DNA of 64,000 nt, taken from positions 832,001 through 896,000 of the forward strand of contig OZ219815.1 of assembly GCA_964291235.2 (NCBI GenBank), written 5' to 3'. Positions 13,488-23,057 of this stretch are shown piece by piece. How positions within the stretch are numbered: position 1 is the first letter of the stretch; each line of letters opens with the position of its first letter. The notes beneath the pieces are model-generated. The model was given only the letters and a program-made list of their open reading frames with translations. It was not told the DNA's origin and did no database searches. The translations under genes and the position numbers were made by a program. The stretch comes from Vicinamibacteria bacterium (GTDB taxonomy: Bacteria > Acidobacteriota > Vicinamibacteria > Marinacidobacterales > Marinacidobacteraceae).

Positions 13488-14098
13488 CGGAGCAGCCATC
13501 CGGCCTGACCGCCTCCGGTGTGCAGCGTCTCGGGGGGACCACCTTCTTTCGCGCCCGAGATGCCGCCGAGCGGGGTATCCATTCGCGGGCGCTGCGGGCC
13601 ATGGTGGACGGAGGAGACGTCGAGCGCGTGGCCCGCGGCCTCTACCGCGTCACGCAAGCCGAACTGACGGAGCAGTACACCCGCGCTGCCGTCTGCGCGC
13701 GGGTTCCAGACGCCATCATCTGTCTGCTGACGGCCCTTAGCGTCCACGAACTCGGCACCCAGCTTCCGCGCAAGGTCTGGATCGCCATTCCCCACAAGGC
13801 CCGCGCGCCTCGCGTTCCGGAGCTGCCGATCCGGGTAGTCCGCTTCTCCGGGGTCTCACTGCGTTACGGGATCGCTGACACGACCTTCGACGGCGTTCCT
13901 GCCCGCATCACGACTCCGGCGCGTACCGTCGTGGACTGCTTCCGTTTCCGGCGGCTGTTCGGCATGCACGTAGCGCTCGAAGCGCTGCGGGAAGCTCTCT
14001 ACGACCGAAAGGCCACCCCCGACCAGATCTGGCGAGCGGCGGAAACATGCCGCGCCAAAGCGCTCGTCGGCCCGGCTCTGGACGCGTTTTCGGCATGA
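13415..14098 (+). CDS. abiEi: Type IV toxin-antitoxin antitoxin, AbiEi family
   Basis: VERVARGLY, ICLLTALSVHEL.TQLP, ITTPARTVVDCFRFR; ATGA overlap with the toxin gene; start uncertain. Confidence 0.9.
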   Translation: MTAPRYPRRMAGSKRRHSKISADISEQPSGLTASGVQRLGGTTFFRARDAAERGIHSRALRAMVDGGDVERVARGLYRVTQAELTEQYTRAAVCARVPDAIICLLTALSVHELGTQLPRKVWIAIPHKARAPRVPELPIRVVRFSGVSLRYGIADTTFDGVPARITTPARTVVDCFRFRRLFGMHVALEALREALYDRKATPDQIWRAAETCRAKALVGPALDAFSA

Positions 14099-15027
14099 CG
14101 CCTACGCGGGAGATTCGGAACGTGCCGGCGTCGGTTCGCCAGCGCCTCCTTAATCTCAGCCGTACCGGCGCACTCGACTTTCAAGCCGTGCTCGATCGGT
14201 ACACATGCGAGCGCTTTCTCTACCGGCTTTCGATCTCACCCGAGATGGACCGATTCGTCCTCAAGGGCGCGGCGCTCTTCCGAGTGTGGGACGGGAAGGA
14301 GGCGCGGCCAACCCGGGATATCGACCTCCTGGACATCTGGTCCGGCGACCGGGCGCCAATTCGCGCCTCCCTCGAGGCTATCTGCCGTGTTCCCTGCCCC
14401 GAGGACGGAGTCGTCTTTGATCCGGCAACCATCCGGATCACCAACATCCGCGACGAGCAGCCTTACGGCGGGGTGCGCGCGCAGATCCAGGGCCGCCTGG
14501 GCCAGGTGCGGCTACCCCTTCAGATCGATATCGGCTTCGGCGACATCATCACGCCGGACCGCGCAGAACGAGACTACCCGACCCTCCTCGATCTCCCGGC
14601 GCCCCGTCTCTGGACATACCCGCCGGAGACCGTGGTCGCCGAGAAGCTGCACGCCCTCGTGGAGCACGGCGCCAGGAACACCCGAGTGAAGGATCTATGG
14701 GACTTGGCCCGCCTCGCTCGTCGCTTCGCATTCGACGGAGAGGTTCTGCGGACCGCAGTCGCCCGAACCTTCCGGCAGCGCGGGACCTCGTTTGGGAGCG
14801 AAAGGCCGATCGCACTGCTCCCGTCTTACTACAAAGACGCGACACGCGAGCGGCTCTGGCGGGGACTGCGACGCGCGATGGATGAGGGCGCCGACGGCCC
14901 GGTCAGGCTCGTGGATGTGGGCGTGGAGCTGTTGCGCTTCCTGGGGCCGATCTGCGACAGCCTGATCGAGGCGCGGCCGTTTACCCCGACTTGGCCCGCC
15001 GGCGGGCCGTGGCGATCGGGAGTTTGA
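14095..15027 (+). CDS. abiEii: Type IV TA toxin, AbiEii/AbiGii nucleotidyltransferase
   Basis: ERFLYRLS, FVLKGA, RPTRDIDL, QIDIGFGD, ETVVAEKLHA, NTRVKDLWD. Confidence 0.92.
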   Translation: MTPTREIRNVPASVRQRLLNLSRTGALDFQAVLDRYTCERFLYRLSISPEMDRFVLKGAALFRVWDGKEARPTRDIDLLDIWSGDRAPIRASLEAICRVPCPEDGVVFDPATIRITNIRDEQPYGGVRAQIQGRLGQVRLPLQIDIGFGDIITPDRAERDYPTLLDLPAPRLWTYPPETVVAEKLHALVEHGARNTRVKDLWDLARLARRFAFDGEVLRTAVARTFRQRGTSFGSERPIALLPSYYKDATRERLWRGLRRAMDEGADGPVRLVDVGVELLRFLGPICDSLIEARPFTPTWPAGGPWRSGV

Positions 15028-15795: not shown

Positions 15796-17046
15796 CTACG
15801 GGGCCTTGACCACCTTCCCATCCCGCATCACGAACCGGACGTCCTCCATCACCCGGACGTTCTCGAGCGGATCTCCTTCGACCGCAATCAGGTCCGCCGC
15901 GTAGCCGTCCGCGATCCGGCCGATCTCGTCTTCGAGGCCGAGCGTCCGCGCCGCGACCGTCATCGCCGACCGCAGTGCGTCCGTCGGGCTCAACCCGATC
16001 CCCACCATCACCGCGAACTCGCGGGCCGCGGTCTCGTGCGGGAAGATGGTGTCCGAGCCGAAAGCCACCGGCGCCCCGGCGGCGAACGCCGCCCCGATGC
16101 GCCGGTCACGCTCTTCCATCAGATCGCGCGCCTTCTGGATGCTCTCCCGCGGGAAGCCGATCGCCTCGCCCTCCTCCACGATGTAGTTCATGACGTAGAG
16201 GGTCGGCACCATCGGGACGCCGCGCTCCTTGAAGAGCCGGATGCCTTCCTCGTCCACGAGCGTCGCGTGCTCCACGGAGTCCACGCCGGCCCGGAGCGCG
16301 GTGATGATCCCCGGCGCGCCGTGGGCGTGGACCGTGATCTTCTTCTTGTGGCGGTGCGCCTCCTCGACCGCCGCGCGGACCTCTTCCTCGGTGTAGGTGC
16401 TGACGTTCGGGTCGTCGCCCGCCGACATCACCCCGCCGGTCATCATCAGCTTGATCCAGTCGGCGCCGTACTTGAACTCCCGCCGGATCTCGAGGCGGAG
16501 CCCCTCCGGCCCGTCGGCGATCCGGGTGGGCGTCTCGATGTGGAGATCCGCCATCAGGTTGTTGAAGTCCCCGTGGCCGCCGGTGGCCGAGATCGCGTGC
16601 GGCGCGATGAGCAGCCGCGGCCCGACGTGCTGGCCGCGGTTGATGGCGTGCTTCAGGTCCACCGTCCCGTAGAAACCATCGAACTCGCCCGGCGTCCGGA
16701 GCGTCGTGAACCCGGCTCCCAGCATCTTTTGGGCGTTCGCCAGCGCGTCGAGCGCGCGCGCCGCGCTCGAGCGGGTGATGTCGATCGCGGTCAGGGTGTC
16801 CGGATTGATCGTCAGGTGCGCGTGCAGGTCGATCAGTCCCGGGAGGCAGGTATAGCCCGAGAGGTCCACCAGCTCGCCGGCGTCCGGAGGTCCGGAAACG
16901 ATCCGCCCGTCCCGGACCACGATGTCCCCGGCGCCACCCATGGCGTCGCCGTCGAAGATCGCTCCGCAGCGGAGCACCGTGTCCTGCGCAAACGCGGTCG
17001 CTCCCAAAAAGAGCGCCGCCAGAAAAACCACCGCCAATCGCGTCAT
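15796..17046 (-). CDS. Secreted amidohydrolase family protein (Xaa-Pro dipeptidase-like)
   Basis: ATG 17046 overlaps the upstream stop; signal peptide; LPGLIDLHAH, TGGHGD, GADWIK, VHAHG, SVEH, FGSD. Confidence 0.9.
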   Translation of the reverse strand: MTRLAVVFLAALFLGATAFAQDTVLRCGAIFDGDAMGGAGDIVVRDGRIVSGPPDAGELVDLSGYTCLPGLIDLHAHLTINPDTLTAIDITRSSAARALDALANAQKMLGAGFTTLRTPGEFDGFYGTVDLKHAINRGQHVGPRLLIAPHAISATGGHGDFNNLMADLHIETPTRIADGPEGLRLEIRREFKYGADWIKLMMTGGVMSAGDDPNVSTYTEEEVRAAVEEAHRHKKKITVHAHGAPGIITALRAGVDSVEHATLVDEEGIRLFKERGVPMVPTLYVMNYIVEEGEAIGFPRESIQKARDLMEERDRRIGAAFAAGAPVAFGSDTIFPHETAAREFAVMVGIGLSPTDALRSAMTVAARTLGLEDEIGRIADGYAADLIAVEGDPLENVRVMEDVRFVMRDGKVVKAP

Positions 17047-18734
17047 GCCGTTGCCTCCGCCATGCTGCAGCGCCGCGGGTCCCCGCAGGCGCGCCGAATT
17101 CCGTCCTCGCCGATGTGAATCCCCTCGAACGAGCCGTGGTGCCAGTTCCAGGGGTTGACCACGTCGAAGTTGATGCCGCGCGCGGCCGCCTCGTCCCGGA
17201 CCTTCTCGGGGAAGTCCGCCTCGATGAGCACCGCGCCGGGGATGGTCAGCGACGGGCCGCCGAACCGCGGCCGGTTCACCGAATCCGCTACCGGCACCCC
17301 GAACTGGAGCACGTTGAGGCTGTTTTGGAGGACGTTCTGGAGCAGGCTGACGCTCGGCGAGCCGGAGGCCATCACCGGCCGGTCGCCCTGGAACAGGATG
17401 TTCGGCGCCACGTAGGCCGAGATCCGGTGCCCGGGCTTCGGCATCACCCGCAGGAAATGGGCGCCCGCCGCGCAGATGCTCACCCCCTCGGCGAAGAGGC
17501 CGTTGCTCCACGGGTAGGACATGCACGAGTGAAGGATGGTCGAGACGTTCCCGGCGGCGTCCACCACCGTCACGTGGTTGCTTCCGGCCGGCGGGGGCGG
17601 CTCGCCGGCGCCCGAGACCGGATGCCCCATCTGGAGCAGGTCGAACCGCATCCGCGCGTAGTCCTTGGAGAGGATCGTTTCGAGCGGCAGCGGGTGGCTC
17701 TCCGGGTCGTTCTGCCGGCCGCCCTCGGAATAGACGAGGTGGCTGATCCGGACCATCTGGAGCAGGCTCTCGGCCGACTCGGTCGGTGGCCCGAGCCCTT
17801 CCAGATCGAGGAACTCCAGCATGTGGAGCATTTCGATGATGTGGGTGCCGCCGTTATCGGGCGGTGGTGACCCAGCGATCTTCAGGTCGCGGTACGACCC
17901 CCACGCCGGCTCCTGCCAGCGCGGCTCCCAGCGCTCGAAGTCGTCCGGGGTCAGGACGCCGCCCGCCGCCTGGACGATCTCGCAGACCCTCTTCGCGAAG
18001 TCGCCCCGGTAGAAGTAGTCGTTCCCCTCCTCGGCCAGCCGCTCCAGGGTGTCGGCGGCCTGCTTCTGGTAGAGCATCGCGCCGGGACGCGGGATGGCGT
18101 TCCCGTCGAAGAAGATCTCGCGGCCGGCGGCGGTGCGGCCGATCTTCTCGGACTGGATGAAGACCTCGCCCCATAGGAACGGATGCATCTCGAACCCGTC
18201 CCGGGCGTAGGCGACCGCGTCCGCCATCAGTTCCTTGCGGGGGAGCGAACCGTGGCGGTCGTGGGCCGCCTCGAAGCCGCCCCACCAGCCGGGCACCGCC
18301 ACCCCGCGCCCGCCGGCGAGGTCGTGCACGCCGTAGCCGGGGAGCGGCGCCATCGGGGTGTTCACGTTGCCGTTGACGTAGGTGGTCTCGCCGGTCGCCT
18401 GGTCGAAATACATCTGGGAGAGACAGCCGGTGATGGTGGTCATGTGCGGCTCGACCACGGTCTGGGTGATCGAGGCGGCGAGCGCCGCGTCGCAAGCATT
18501 GCCGCCCTTTTCGAGGATGTCGATGGCCGCGCGGGTGGCGAGCGGGTGCGAGGTGATCGCCATCCCGCCGGCGCCCTCGGCCGGGGCCTTCTGGCCGAAG
18601 TGGGCGAGCTCGACGAGCCGCCGGCGTTCCGCGGCGTCGGGGGCGGCGGCCACCCGTGAGGCGGGGATCGCAGCGCCGGCGAGGCCGGCGGCGGTGGTTC
18701 CAAGGAATGTTCGGCGGGATGTCGGGACTCTCAT
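17043..18734 (-). CDS. Gamma-glutamyltransferase family protein with Tat signal
   Basis: True start at ATG 18734 (MRVPTSRRTFLG); GGNACDAALA, VAVPG, ARDGF, FYRG, PPPDNGG, SNHVTVVDAAGN. The upstream part of ORF 17043..19982 is repeat read-through. Confidence 0.88.
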   Translation of the reverse strand: MRVPTSRRTFLGTTAAGLAGAAIPASRVAAAPDAAERRRLVELAHFGQKAPAEGAGGMAITSHPLATRAAIDILEKGGNACDAALAASITQTVVEPHMTTITGCLSQMYFDQATGETTYVNGNVNTPMAPLPGYGVHDLAGGRGVAVPGWWGGFEAAHDRHGSLPRKELMADAVAYARDGFEMHPFLWGEVFIQSEKIGRTAAGREIFFDGNAIPRPGAMLYQKQAADTLERLAEEGNDYFYRGDFAKRVCEIVQAAGGVLTPDDFERWEPRWQEPAWGSYRDLKIAGSPPPDNGGTHIIEMLHMLEFLDLEGLGPPTESAESLLQMVRISHLVYSEGGRQNDPESHPLPLETILSKDYARMRFDLLQMGHPVSGAGEPPPPAGSNHVTVVDAAGNVSTILHSCMSYPWSNGLFAEGVSICAAGAHFLRVMPKPGHRISAYVAPNILFQGDRPVMASGSPSVSLLQNVLQNSLNVLQFGVPVADSVNRPRFGGPSLTIPGAVLIEADFPEKVRDEAAARGINFDVVNPWNWHHGSFEGIHIGEDGIRRACGDPRRCSMAEATA

Positions 18735-18785
18735 GCGGGAACCTCTGGGACGGGCGAACCTACCAAACCAACGGAGCGGCGCTCG

Positions 18786-19009
18786 GTTGGCTGGAGCGCC
18801 AGCCTCCAGGCTGGCATCGCCCGCGCAGCGGGCGAAACTCCCAAACCTGATCCTGCCGGATGGGGCCGCCGCCGAGCAGGGTGGCGCTGCGCCACTCCCG
18901 GGCTTGTACGACAATGCGCCGTCGCCGTTTGGGTTGGCATCTTCCGGGACGACTAAGTCTGGGAGTTTCGCGGCCGGCGGCCGCGATGCCGGCCGGAGGC
19001 CGGCGCTCC
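18786..19009. repeat. ~224-bp REPIN-like element, copy A
   Basis: Inverted REP hairpins at both ends; inner IR GCGAAACTCCCAAAC (18832) / GTCTGGGAGTTTCGC (18957); near-identical to copy B. Confidence 0.9.
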
Positions 19010-19021
19010 AGCGGACCCGAG

Positions 19022-19777
19022 CACCTGTCGATAACGCACCCGGCGGAACCGAACATTTGTCGATAACGCACTCGGCGGAACCCAACACCTGTCGATAACG
19101 CACCCGGCGGAACCGAACACCTGTCGATATCGCACCCGGCGGAACCGAACACCTGTCGATAACGCACTCGGCGAAGCCGAACACCTGTCGATAACGCACT
19201 CGGCGGAACCGAACACCTGTCGATAACGCACTCGGCGGAACCGAACACCTGTCGATAACGCACCCGGCGGAACCCAACACCTGTCGATAACGCATTCGGC
19301 GGAACCGAACACCTGTCGATAACGCATTCGCCGGAACCGAACACCTGTCGATAACCCACCCGGCGGATCCGAACACCTGTCGATAACCCACCCGGCGGAA
19401 CCCGAACACCTGTCGATAACCCACCCGGCGGATCCGAACACCTGTCGATAACCCACCCGGCGAAGCCGAACACCTGTCGATAACGCACCCGGCGGATCCG
19501 AACACCTGTCGATAACGCACCCGGCGGATCCCGAACACCTGTCGATAACCCACCCGGCGGATCCGAACACCTGTCGATAACGCACCCGGCGGAACCCAAA
19601 CACCTGTCGATAACGCACCCGGCGGAACCCAACACCTGTCGATAACGCACCCGGCGGAACCCAACACCTGTCGATAACGCACCCGGCGACGCCGAACACC
19701 TGTCGATAACGCACCCGGCGGAACCCAACACCTGTCGATAACGCACCCGGCGGAACCGAGCACCTCTCGATAACGCA
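19022..19777. repeat. Tandem array of 23 full plus 1 partial 32-33-bp units, consensus CACCTGTCGATAACGCACCCGGCGGAACCGAA
   Basis: Counted by eye: units at 19022, 19054, 19086 ... 19729, partial at 19761; three 33-bp variants; no unique spacers. Confidence 0.97.
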
Positions 19778-19795
19778 GTCGGTGCAACAGTCCCT

Positions 19796-20020
19796 GTTGG
19801 CTAGGAGCGCCAGCCTCCAGGCTGGCATCGCCCGCGCAGCGGGCGAAACTCCCAGACCTGATCCTGCCGGATGGGGCCGCCGCCGAGCAGGGTGGCGCTG
19901 CGCCACTCCCGGGCTTGTACGGCAATGCGCCGTCCCCGTTTGGGTTGGCGTCTTCACGGACGACTAAGTCTGGGAGTTTCACGGCCTGCGGCCGCGATGC
20001 CGGCCGGAGGCCGGCGCTCC
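19796..20020. repeat. ~225-bp REPIN-like element, copy B
   Basis: Direct repeat of 18786-19009 with a small number of substitutions. Confidence 0.9.
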
Positions 20021-20025
20021 GGTCC

Positions 20026-21354
20026 CTACTCCGGAGGCTCCGGCATCGCCCAGGCCGCCTCCACCGGGAACCCGTCCTTCCACACCGCGGCGATCGCGGT
20101 GCTCAGGCTCAGGTCGCTTTCGAGGTCCCCGGCGACCAGCAACAGGTCGGCGATCCGGCCGCGCTCCAGCCGTCCCCGATCCTCGATTCCGAAGGCATCC
20201 GCGGCCTCGCCGGTGGCGGCCGCCAGCGACTCCGCCGCACTCAATCCCGAACGCTGGAGAAGCCGCAGCTCGCCGTGCACCGAGATCCCGAAGCCGGTCC
20301 CCGGGTTCGGGGCGTCGGTCCCGGCGAGAATCCGCACCCCCGCCACGTGGAGCCGGCGGACGCTCTCGACCGACGCCTCGCTGGTTCCGACCGGTCGCGG
20401 GAACGTGCCCGAAAGCGTCTCGCGCTGCACCGCCGACACGTGCTCCGCCGGCGTCTCCGCCAGCAACTCCGGCCCCATCGACTCCCCCGCCGCCGCGACT
20501 CGCACCGAGAGCGTCGGGATCACGAACACCCCCGCTTCGGCGAAGCGCGCCGCGTCCTCCTCGGAGATGACCTCGTCCCCCCAGACGTGGACAAACCCGT
20601 CAATCCCCATCTCGAGCGCGGCGAGCGCGTGCTCGAGCGTGCTCACGTGGATGACCGCGAGCAGCTCCTCGGCGTGAGCGGCCTCGATGACCGCCGCGAT
20701 CGTCTCGCGGTCGAGCGTCGGGATGACCGCCCCGAAGGTGCTGCCGTCCTCCCAGATGATCTTGATCCAGTCGGCGCCCTCTTCCTTCCGCGCGCGGACG
20801 AAGGCCGGCGCCTCCTCCGGATTCGTCAGCGTCTCCACCGGGACGCCGAACTGGGTACCGTGCCCGTCGGGCGCGGTAGCGACGTTGCCCGCGGAAAAGA
20901 GATCGGCCTCGTCGCCGCGGCCGAGCGCCTCCCGGGCCGGGCGCTTGTTGGCCGCGAGCGCCGGGGCCGTGAACTGATCGAACACCGTGGTCACCCCGAA
21001 GCGCAGGGAGTCGGCCAGCGCCATCCCGTAGGTGTGGGTGTGGGCGTCGATCAGTCCCGGCAGCAGGGTGTGGCCGCGGCCGTCCACGCGAGGCAGGCCC
21101 GCGGGGAGATCCAGCCGCTGCCCGACGGCCCGGATCCGTCCGTCCTCGACCCAGACGTCCCGGTGGGGCCGGAACTCCTCCCCGTCGAACACGGTCACGT
21201 CCACCACCGCGAAATCGGTCTCCGGGAGCGGCCCGCCCGGCGGGTCCGCCGGTTCCGGTACCGGTAGCGTCATGAGCAGGCCCACGAACACCGCAACCCC
21301 CACTGCGGCGATCAGCGGGTCGCGGCGCCAGAGGATGCGCTCGGCAGGAGTCAC
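20026..21354 (-). CDS. Amidohydrolase family protein with N-terminal membrane anchor
   Basis: Probable GTG at 21354; LLPGLIDAHTH, GADWIK, VIHV, FVHVW, LAGTDAPN, GRIADLLLV. Confidence 0.85.
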   Translation of the reverse strand: MTPAERILWRRDPLIAAVGVAVFVGLLMTLPVPEPADPPGGPLPETDFAVVDVTVFDGEEFRPHRDVWVEDGRIRAVGQRLDLPAGLPRVDGRGHTLLPGLIDAHTHTYGMALADSLRFGVTTVFDQFTAPALAANKRPAREALGRGDEADLFSAGNVATAPDGHGTQFGVPVETLTNPEEAPAFVRARKEEGADWIKIIWEDGSTFGAVIPTLDRETIAAVIEAAHAEELLAVIHVSTLEHALAALEMGIDGFVHVWGDEVISEEDAARFAEAGVFVIPTLSVRVAAAGESMGPELLAETPAEHVSAVQRETLSGTFPRPVGTSEASVESVRRLHVAGVRILAGTDAPNPGTGFGISVHGELRLLQRSGLSAAESLAAATGEAADAFGIEDRGRLERGRIADLLLVAGDLESDLSLSTAIAAVWKDGFPVEAAWAMPEPPE

Positions 21355-21359
21355 GTCGC

Positions 21360-22139
21360 TCACCGCCCGGAGAACCGCCGGAGTCCCACGGCCGCCGCCA
21401 CCAGGCAGATCGCGGTCTGCCCGCCCAGCAGCACGAGATGGAGCCACAGCGGCCGGCCCAGATCGAGGTCGATCACCTTCAGCGCCAGTTGGCCCAGGTG
21501 ATAGGCGGGAAAGGCGATGGCGATGTCCTGCAGGAAGCCCGGAAGCATGTAGATCGGGACCCACAGTCCCGAGATGAGCGACATGCCGATGAAGACGAGG
21601 TTCACGATCGCTACCGCGGCCTGTTGCTTCGCCCACGCCCCCATCGCCAGCCCGATGGCGCTGAACGGCAGCACCCCCGCGAGGATGATCCCGGCGAGCG
21701 CGAACCACTGCCCCCGGTAGAGCTCGACTCCCGCGACGAAGCCAGCCAGGAGAAACAGCGCGAGCACCACCACGGCGCCGAAGATGGCCGCCGTCCCCAC
21801 CCGGGCGCACAGGTAGGCGCCGGCGGGCATCGGCGTCGTGCGCTTCAGCAGGAGGGCGCCGGTGTCGCGCTCCTGAGCGAGTCCCACCCCGAAACCGAAG
21901 AGCGACGGAGCGAGGACGCCGAAGACACCGTAGGTCGCCAGCATGTAGGTCGGCGCCGCGAGCGACTGGCCGCCCGACTGGAACACCACGGCGAAGAACA
22001 GGTAGAAGAGCACCGGGAAGAGCAGCGTCGGGATGGCGAACGCCGGCAGCCGCAGCGAGCTCAGGAACTGGAACCGCGTCTCCAGCAGGGTGATCCGCAG
22101 GTGCCAGAGGAAGCCGCGGCGCGCGGTGGTGGCTGTCAC
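21360..22139 (-). CDS. ABC-2 type transporter permease
   Basis: About six TM segments; ERDTGALLLKRTTP; ISGLWVPI..LP. Confidence 0.9.
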   Translation of the reverse strand: MTATTARRGFLWHLRITLLETRFQFLSSLRLPAFAIPTLLFPVLFYLFFAVVFQSGGQSLAAPTYMLATYGVFGVLAPSLFGFGVGLAQERDTGALLLKRTTPMPAGAYLCARVGTAAIFGAVVVLALFLLAGFVAGVELYRGQWFALAGIILAGVLPFSAIGLAMGAWAKQQAAVAIVNLVFIGMSLISGLWVPIYMLPGFLQDIAIAFPAYHLGQLALKVIDLDLGRPLWLHLVLLGGQTAICLVAAAVGLRRFSGR

Positions 22140-23057
22140 TTACGCGTCTCCCGCCCCACCGTCGCCGGTAAGCGCGAGGAACGCCTCCTCGAGTCCCACA
22201 CCGACCACCGTCAGGTCCTTGAGGTCCGGGTCGAGCGCGAACATCCGGCGGAGCAGCGCCTCCGGCTCGGCGCTCACGATCTCGAGATGCTGGCCCTTGG
22301 TCTCCACCCGGGCGGCCTCGGGGAAGGAACGCGCGGTTTCGGGACCGATGCTCGTGACAGAGCGCACCACGCGGCCCGAGGTGCGCGACTTGATCTCCTC
22401 CGGGCTCCCGGCGGCGATCAGCCGCCCCCGGTGGATCACCGCGATCCGGTCGGCGAGCGCGTCCGCCTCCTCGAGGTAATGGGTGGTGAGGACGGCGGTG
22501 CGTCCGGCCGCCTTCAGCCCCCGGATCTCGTCCCACAGCCGGCGGCGGCCGTCGAGATCCAGTCCGGCGGTCGGCTCGTCGAGGAACACGAGTTCCGGAT
22601 CGCCAGCCAGCGCCAGGGCGAACATCACCCGCTGCTTCTGCCCGCCGGAGAGCTTCCCGTAGCGCCGGTCCTTGAGTTCCTGGAGGCCCGCCATTTCCAG
22701 GAGGCGCGCCGTCGGTAGGGGCGAGGGGTAGTAGGCGCGGAAGAGCGCCAGGTGCTCCGCCACGGTGAGCGTCTCCGGAACTCCGGAGATCTGGAGCATC
22801 GCGCCGCGCCGCAGGCGGACCTCGGCGGCGTCCGGGGCGCGCCCGAAGACGCGGGCGGCCCCGGACTGCAGCGGCAGCGTGCCGAGGAGGAGGCTGACCG
22901 CGGTCGTTTTCCCGGCGCCGTTCGGTCCGAGCACCGCGAGCACCTCGCCCTCCCGGACTTCCAGATCGAGCCGGTCGAGCGCCAGGACCTCGCCGTAGCG
23001 GTGGCTCACGCCGGAGAGGTGCGCGAGGCCGGAGCGGGGTGTCGGGGCGGGTGGCAA
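22140..23057 (-). CDS. ABC transporter ATP-binding protein
   Basis: GPNGAGKTT, LSGGQKQR, LVFLDEPT, TTHYLEEA. Confidence 0.96.
   Translation of the reverse strand: MPPAPTPRSGLAHLSGVSHRYGEVLALDRLDLEVREGEVLAVLGPNGAGKTTAVSLLLGTLPLQSGAARVFGRAPDAAEVRLRRGAMLQISGVPETLTVAEHLALFRAYYPSPLPTARLLEMAGLQELKDRRYGKLSGGQKQRVMFALALAGDPELVFLDEPTAGLDLDGRRRLWDEIRGLKAAGRTAVLTTHYLEEADALADRIAVIHRGRLIAAGSPEEIKSRTSGRVVRSVTSIGPETARSFPEAARVETKGQHLEIVSAEPEALLRRMFALDPDLKDLTVVGVGLEEAFLALTGDGGAGDA

Follow-up and report, generated by a model that had tools for sequence, protein, structure and literature searches.

The subject of this analysis is a 1.2-kb intergenic block of repeated DNA in a Vicinamibacteria bacterium of the family Marinacidobacteraceae (assembly GCA_964291235.2, contig OZ219815.1, positions 832,001 to 896,000; this 64-kb stretch is the window, and bare coordinates refer to it). 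Two unrelated repeat classes make up the block, a resident array of 32-bp tandem units and two copies of a palindromic element of the REPIN type (repetitive extragenic palindromic, or REP, doublets forming hairpins). The array is part of a 32-base tandem repeat family that is genus-wide and, among the genomes searched, found in this genus only. Such units number dozens to hundreds in this genus of uncultured, sponge-type marine acidobacteria, where they sit at fixed intergenic sites, with a core that is near-invariant within each array yet replaced between species. The arrays also attract an IS21-family insertion sequence (IS), and mobile DNA accumulates in and beside them. The genome of the window, G000, comprises 3.45 Mb in two contigs (C1 and C2) with 68% G+C; labels such as G001 and G008 denote other genomes of the same genus.

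A 32-bp array and its family in one genome

Tandem Repeats Finder (TRF) delimited the array, B1, at 19011..19777 on the plus strand, with a period of 32, 23.9 copies, 92% matches and a score of 1234. Split by hand, it comprises 24 units (21 of 32 bp and three of 33 bp), each made of the 14-bp core CACCTGTCGATAAC followed by a variable half that holds a conserved CGGCG block. Core and remainder were compared in 20 units, those of exactly 32 bp among the 23 split in that analysis. The core had 3 mismatches in 280 cells, versus 30 in 360 at the other 18 positions (Fisher p = 1.6e-5); part of the core had served as the splitting anchor, but the 32–33-bp spacing means that no unit was skipped. Adjacent units were more similar than in random order, with 154 of 10,000 permutations reaching the observed value. 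Thus two features that a preliminary description had read from the letters, the near-invariance of one half of the unit and the clustering of variants in neighboring units, are borne out by the counts.

The same description had set aside clustered regularly interspaced short palindromic repeats (CRISPR), and this too holds. A tandem repeat of ∼32 bp can fool repeat finders, but here the units are contiguous at 32–33-bp spacing, the variable half differs at few positions, and there are zero spacers, let alone unique ones of similar length. No cas family was seen among 109 open reading frames (ORFs) around other arrays, and no genome-wide cas search was made. Apart from CRISPR and coding repeats, bacterial genomes seldom contain long tandem arrays.

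B1 is not alone in G000. Allowing one mismatch at most, the genome has 47 matches to the 14-mer core, each in one of two arrays, and a reversed control has none. The second array, B2 (G000:C2:1475385-1476151), has 23.8 units, with an S9 peptidase gene on one side and fumC on the other. A genome-wide repeat scan with motif clustering revealed at least 11 arrays of ∼32-bp period: in addition to the two of type B, there are five type-A loci (core CTCCGGTCGATATC, up to 35 units), three type-C loci (core GAACATGTCGCAGTAGC) and a single type-D locus (core GCTACTAGTAGC). The search for other arrays, a check proposed in the preliminary description, has in this way returned a second array with the same core and nine sister arrays. 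The ten others lie within G000:C1:438278-440071, C1:1062295-1062640 and C1:277313-277850, and within G000:C2:423209-424220, C2:1475385-1476151, C2:1510773-1510820, C2:870880-871000, C2:2024261-2024662 and C2:223800-224170. Together, the 11 arrays amount to 5.5 kb, or 0.16% of G000; REP-like DNA, at 28.5 kb, is about five times as abundant.

Units of all types share a layout, consisting of a few bases, a 10–14-bp core ending in TA.C or TAGC, and a G-rich half such as GGGATCGGCGG. In several arrays a higher-order period of two units (64 bp) is visible. The gap between core and remainder recurs in each of three further arrays, with mismatches of 2/266 versus 40/342 in B2, 0/434 versus 74/558 in A2, and 1/308 versus 51/396 in A3. 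Over these and B1, core mismatch is 0–1.1% and that of the rest 8–13% (P from 1.6e-5 to 4e-20). When the consensus lines of B1 and B2 were compared, 14 of 14 core positions agreed, against 9 of 18 elsewhere. Core conservation between arrays of different genomes was set aside as evidence, since most core positions there had been fixed by the scan pattern itself. Orientation relative to genes is variable. B1 is antisense and B2 sense, and type A is sense upstream of a carbonic anhydrase gene and antisense at the site in G008 that corresponds to B1.

Toxin–antitoxin genes adjoin arrays at G000:C1:438440-438965 and G000:C2:421575-423105. A small gene pair between arrays A1 and A2 looks HicAB-like by eye, and one of its ORFs has no Pfam match. 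In the window, a gene for an AbiEii-type nucleotidyltransferase toxin (14047-15027; PF08843, E = 2.1e-43) lies 4 kb from the array.

Arrays across the genus and an IS21-family element within them

The exact type-B core is specific to G000 among the genomes searched: it forms an array in 0 of 60 relatives, and in a phylum-wide sample of 400 genomes, 0 had a looser periodic GTCGATA pattern. The family as a whole is wider. A pair pattern of the C/M type occurred in 14 of the 15 remaining genus genomes, the sole miss being a genome 66% complete. It was seen in 0 of 12 genomes from the family's other genera and in 0 of 27 from the order's other families. When 185,579 species genomes were scanned with a type-A/B pattern, 36 loci resulted; 26 of these are genuine arrays whose unit resembles type A and whose period is mostly 32 or 64–65 and in a few cases 31 or 33. 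All 26 are in records titled Acidobacteria, Acidobacteriota, Vicinamibacteria or 'Candidatus Marinacidobacterium' metagenome-assembled genomes. Matches in other phyla and in one Terriglobia record turned out to be 33- or 66-bp repeats or no repeat at all, and the one type-B pair match in metagenomes was an unrelated coding 33-bp repeat (PPPVDNGGSNP). Viral contigs gave 0 matches to the array pattern.

How the family changes with time can be followed upstream of the gene for gamma-glutamyltranspeptidase (GGT), which in the window occupies 17043..18734 on the minus strand (Pfam PF01019, E = 5.6e-74). Orthologues of 91–93% identity exist in 14 of the 15 other genomes. Of the 15 genomes with the gene, G000 included, nine have an upstream array by TRF, and the remaining six keep one or two relic units each at the same place, by eye. 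Across these genomes the site holds from 1 to ∼40 units, always in one orientation and of at least seven core types; this copy-number variation is between species. Type B in G000 is replaced by ∼40 type-A units in G008, by one GGGTGCGATAAC unit and then 35 AACACCACGCATTAGC units in G001, and by 15 GGGTGCGATATC units and then GCATGCGTCTAT units in G013. G003, G005 and G011 have ACATGTAGCACTAGC units, G010 has CTCCATGCACTAAC units, and G006 has a further type.

Other sites are less stable. Upstream of the carbonic anhydrase gene, arrays lie at a distance of 60–100 bp in three genomes (type A in G000 and G008, type C in G001); short arrays were found ∼1.35 kb away in two genomes, and none in nine. 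The array upstream of fumC is present in G000 only and in 0 of the 14 other genus genomes with fumC; gene order on that side differs in most relatives, and no clean empty-site boundaries were seen. Comparison of the three sites shows that arrays are long-lived at some sites and gained or lost at others, and that their cores turn over. In other genomes of the genus (loci L158-L162 and L166-L170), the region upstream of fumC contains a small divergent gene, ribbon-helix-helix-like by eye, whose promoter region carries two direct TGCTAGCA(C) boxes; G000 lacks this gene and has array B2 there.

By its sequence and distribution, the array fits the broad kind of intergenic minisatellite or variable number tandem repeat (VNTR) families, with tandem arrays of a shared unit at 11 or more loci in G000 and copy numbers that vary between relatives. 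The mycobacterial interspersed repetitive units (MIRUs) are perhaps the closest known case: head-to-tail units of tens of bases, at many intergenic loci, of unknown function. As in MIRUs, one unit family occupies many intergenic loci and varies in copy number between relatives at the same locus. The present arrays differ from MIRUs in that the unit is 32 bp, which is not a multiple of three, and arrays reach ∼40 units. Small in-frame ORFs are not expected from such a unit, and the phase that would allow small coupled ORFs, specific to MIRUs, is lacking at 32 bp and in mixed orientation. Further differences are the fixed 32-bp phase, the array-specific near-invariant core, the turnover of that core, and a preference shown by an IS21-family element.

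This element came to light through its ends. Several arrays in G000 end in a common 'trailer' of two 23–25-bp direct repeats, and the motif is present in 16 of 16 genomes of the genus. In G001, a sister species, this motif terminates a 2,461-bp element that encodes IstB (PF01695 IstB_IS21, E = 2.6e-76) and an IstA-like transposase of 469 aa with a Mu-transposase C-terminal domain. Read by eye, the element begins TGTCAAGAGAC and ends GTCTCCTACA, with two 23-bp direct repeats at one end; an example copy is at G001:C17 50282-52742 (locus L086 1283-3743). Its IstA/IstB genes, TGT...ACA ends and target duplications place it, on sequence features, in the IS21 family.

There are 14 full copies in G001. 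Twelve are inside 32-bp-type arrays of four core types; of the other two, one occupies a REP array and the second ordinary DNA, so the element is nearly exclusive to arrays. Target duplications of 5 bp flank 11 of the 14, at positions within the unit that vary (by eye), which indicates independent insertions. The flanks of the other three match each other crosswise, again by eye, which suggests recombination between copies or IS-mediated rearrangements. At 21 further loci, taken from 11 genomes, the end motif for the most part likewise occurs within tens of bases of an array. No IstA homologue was found in G000, but relic ends abut five of its arrays (A2, A3, D and two of type C). Four arrays, of types A, C, D and C, each have beside them a relic module of two IS-end repeats and one REP, with the same joint; the modules lie at G000:C1:440076-440200, C1:277849-277980, C2:223640-223760 and C2:871006-871130. 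A further relic IS end lies between hipBA genes and array A3; there, an HTH_31 and HipA pair occupies a cargo-like position on the inner side of the relic end.

Insertion at varied positions within the unit suggests that structure, or a bound factor, is recognized rather than one sequence. PMC11208146 reports 'structure-based site selectivity' for IS21, in which IstB, at a 'suitably flexible insertion site', curves the target as a half-coil. Some insertion sequences are known to target REP sequences, for instance IS1397 and ISPpu9 (PMC1525189 and PMC12288879). Like those, the present element uses an abundant intergenic repeat as a preferred, harmless target; it differs in belonging to the IS21 family, in targeting a tandem array, and in entering the unit at varied positions. 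If the preference is structural, the arrays would offer a natural test bed for the IS21 selectivity reported in PMC11208146, and an example of safe-site targeting without sequence-specific recognition.

Literature searches, on intergenic tandem repeats of sponge symbionts or Acidobacteria, on the genus name and on IS21 targets, turned up nothing on such arrays, no paper naming 'Marinacidobacterium', and no description of tandem arrays as targets of an IS21-family element. Neither the array family nor its association with an IS21-family element seems to have been described, and both can be tested. There is also practical interest, since the arrays break short-read assemblies, mimic CRISPR, and could be strain markers for these symbionts.

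The flanking REPIN-type elements

At each edge of B1 lies a palindromic element. The left copy (18786..19010, plus strand) consists of two inverted REP-like hairpin ends and a ∼100-bp middle between them, and the right copy (19797..20020, plus strand) is its direct repeat at 96% identity. Direct comparison gave the pair 18793-19009 / 19804-20020 (217 nt, 96% identity, spacing 1011), extended to 18786-19010 / 19796-20020 in a search of the genome itself. The preliminary description of a 32-bp tandem array enclosed by two palindromic direct repeats is in this respect accurate, as is its placement between two co-directional genes. On the left, 51 bp separate the element from the GGT start codon; on the right, 5 bp separate it from the stop codon (20026-20028) of an amidohydrolase gene (20026..22536; Pfam PF01979, E = 1.8e-19), which like GGT is on the minus strand. 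Words of the array were present in Logan contigs from two studies (runs X1 and X2 of P1; X5 of P2), and the array was spanned by no Logan contig in the four runs compared. Seven public runs were listed, none of them of RNA.

Each flank is an imperfect long palindrome, with arms at 18809-18867 / 18936-18994 and 18785-18807 / 18995-19017. Its DNA folds at -82.4 kcal/mol (z = -6.3), a value reached by 0 of 200 shuffles. A search of the genome with the flank gave 150 matches. By blastn, G000 contains 39 full-length places, the window pair included, and 185 full or partial ones; the 37 other full-length copies are 66–87% identical to the flank. In eight aligned copies, the conserved ends are REP-type hairpins in inverted orientation. 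At ∼220 bp, the flanks are, to our knowledge, longer than described REPINs.

Elsewhere in the genome, at G000:C1:16193-16924, is a gene for a Y1 transposase of the REP-associated tyrosine transposase (RAYT) type. It is a 243-aa ORF with an HVH motif that scores 32–33 bits against PF01797 (cut-off 23), and REP tandem arrays of ∼120-bp period lie on both sides of it. We consider it the likely mobilizer of the REP and REPIN families of the genome. The preliminary description had noted that no cognate enzyme is in the window and had proposed looking for a linked RAYT; the window indeed has no such enzyme, and a RAYT gene lies at this other site in the genome. Elements such as REP, the bacterial interspersed mosaic element (BIME) and REPIN, with their RAYT transposases, are a known kind (PMC3116915, PMC3337134 and PMC3333891). 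Inverted REP-type hairpin ends, dozens of dispersed intergenic copies and a REP-flanked RAYT gene assign the flanks to this kind, as had been proposed. The array itself differs in being non-palindromic and without a REP hairpin.

The two flanks are each other's closest relatives (96%), the next best copy being 87% alike, and they have in common ∼7 bp (GTTGGCT) just beyond the boundary shared by the family. Both features point to local duplication or gene conversion rather than two independent insertions. They could also be cited for the idea, central to the preliminary description, that the REPINs bound a mobile or excisable cassette, from which recombination between the flanks, or the RAYT, would release a unit of ∼1.01 kb. 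A RAYT is present in the genome, and any pair of direct repeats can lose the intervening DNA by homologous recombination. Yet the array is not associated with these flanks elsewhere, the very association on which the preliminary description had made the idea depend. The same-core array B2 has no flank element, the nearest match being 15.7 kb away. None of the ten other family arrays in G000 is enclosed by the element: a match lies within 65–184 bp, on one side, at three of the ten, and there is none within 1.8 kb at seven. Conversely, 37 full-length copies of the element are without any array. Upstream of GGT, the full element is found in 0 of 14 other genus genomes, among which only G006 and G004 have short REP-end matches there, whereas array units are at the site in 15 of 15 genomes; this argues that the array is resident and not delivered by its flanks. 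No single-element joint of the outer flanks was seen in contigs of four runs, a weak test in that it covers contigs only. The cassette is thus not supported and largely refuted, and we rate its chances as very slim. Of the interpretation as first offered, the exclusion of CRISPR, the REPIN-like flanks and the lack of an enzyme in the window remain, and the REPIN-bounded cassette does not.

What the arrays may do

Our preferred reading, also raised in the preliminary description, is that the array binds protein. More broadly, we see about an even chance that these arrays are phased recognition or flexible DNA that also provides landing pads for mobile DNA. B1 is the type-B member, at an old array site upstream of GGT, of a genus-specific intergenic superfamily of ∼32-bp minisatellites. 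Such arrays would grow, shrink and homogenize through slippage and unequal exchange, as suggested by the clustering of variants, the 64-bp higher-order periods and the range of 1 to ∼40 units at one site. The 14-bp core, nearly invariant within the array while the other half drifts, would be a putative recognition or flexibility element that recurs at intervals of 32 bp (about three helical turns). Most likely it would be bound by a sequence-specific DNA-binding factor, to give a regularly phased, bendable tract. In favor on the side of mechanics are the structure-based selectivity reported for IS21 and the TA steps of the arrays, at 3.6 per 100 bp versus 1.08 genome-wide (above the 99th percentile of 700-bp windows) and about one per 32-bp unit. 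Through the same physical property, the arrays may serve the IS21-family element, and perhaps REPINs, as landing pads, which would explain an element at each edge of B1. The two REPIN-type copies, members of the RAYT/REP system of the genome, may have landed at the array edges or been duplicated across them.

Protein-bound repeats of this design exist. The sopC site of plasmid F, parC of R1 and plasmid iterons are direct repeats with a protein-binding core and phasing by whole helical turns. The arrays resemble them in having direct repeats with a conserved core at about three helical turns, from which we infer binding; they differ in occupying many loci per chromosome, in having many core types, and in that no viral contig carries the pattern. 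Pfam searches revealed no partition or replication gene among the 109 ORFs around seven arrays, nor among five ORFs around the window array. On gene linkage, membership in the centromere or iteron class fails.

Several observations weigh against the protein-binding reading. The genus has at least nine core types, which would require several factors or one adaptable factor, and the invariance of the core could reflect biased homogenization rather than selection. The absence of the fumC-side array from 14 other genomes suggests that arrays also arise at new sites. No gene recurs beside the seven type-A/B arrays scanned (109 ORFs within 3.2 kb, Pfam). The figure of 12 in 14 for the IS could be in part survivorship in harmless DNA.

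The main rival, which we regard as possible but clearly less probable, is a neutral or selfish minisatellite devoid of function, in which homogenization centered on the core, by way of conversion tracts or break sites, keeps the core invariant and the IS persists simply as an insertion in harmless DNA. The variation from 1 to ∼40 units at one site, the turnover of core types, the local clustering of variants, the presence or absence of arrays at the carbonic anhydrase and fumC sites, and the lack of a recurring neighbor gene (seven type-A/B arrays) are all consistent with it. So is the outcome of scans for expression signals: there is no sigma-70-like promoter or intrinsic terminator in 18500-20300, and no Rfam match in 18000-21000 or in five other array-bearing loci. 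Less easily accommodated is the gap between core and remainder, which is strong and repeated in four arrays. B1 and B2, at different loci, have an identical core though half of their other positions differ, and the 32-bp period is kept over core types with little shared sequence. In addition, the IS is in 32-bp arrays in 12 of 14 cases and in REP DNA in 1 of 14, although REP DNA is about five times commoner in G000; array and REP shares were measured in G000, and the argument against survivorship holds only if G001 is similar. A more far-reaching version of the preferred reading, which we consider unlikely, would make the arrays a bacterial counterpart of satellite DNA: phased tracts bound by one or more fast-co-evolving sequence-specific proteins, or read by their shape alone, and kept at fixed intergenic sites as dedicated safe landing pads whose structure IstB would recognize. 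If this were true, host and transposon would both gain, with insertions steered away from genes.

The same null results from the promoter, terminator and Rfam scans count against a repetitive non-coding RNA, either a sponge for proteins or small RNAs or a precursor cut into 32-nt units. Short conserved motifs in the units could be bound as RNA, and some type-C variable halves contain short inverted repeats with a few G–U-compatible changes, by eye. But stretches of four A or B units fold like shuffles on both strands (z = -0.86, +1.03, -0.98 and +0.57), and the same type of array occurs in either orientation to genes, making an RNA improbable. Covariation in the type-C hairpins, likewise judged by eye, was inconsistent among units related by descent, and was dropped. 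Even less probable is a local cis-regulatory array for GGT, with operator- or enhancer-like sites ∼50–60 bp upstream of the start codon. Such a role would fit the units found at the same place upstream of GGT, in one orientation, in 15 of 15 genomes, as well as the arrays 60–100 bp upstream of the carbonic anhydrase gene in three. It is at odds with a core that varies between species though GGT stays 91–93% identical, with the one or two relic units kept by six genomes, with the same unit types beside unrelated genes, and with the 225-bp element that lies between array and GGT in G000.

Two further ideas about the core were rejected. Its reverse, TTATCGACA, matches 8 of 9 positions of the E. 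coli DnaA-box consensus, but sister types do not fit. A role as restriction decoy was discarded in that the core hexamers GATATC, ACATGT, ACTAGT and GCATGC are not avoided elsewhere (ratios 0.95–1.02). The GC skew of G000 was too weak to place the origin for a test of replication-strand bias. The most avoided palindromic hexamers in G000 are GTCGAC (observed/expected 0.19) and CAGCTG (0.31), which hints at matching restriction systems.

Two other repeats in G000 were recorded along the way. The fabG–acpP spacer (G000:C2:716700-716900) contains an element of ∼190 bp whose 24-bp inverted ends, AGCAGCCTGTCGATAAAGT(G/C)ACG, resemble the type-B core. A tandem repeat of period 15/30 bp at G000:C1:567308-568398 has ∼36 copies and, read on the reverse strand, would encode a lysine-rich repeat of the KKA type, possibly the tail of a histone-like protein.

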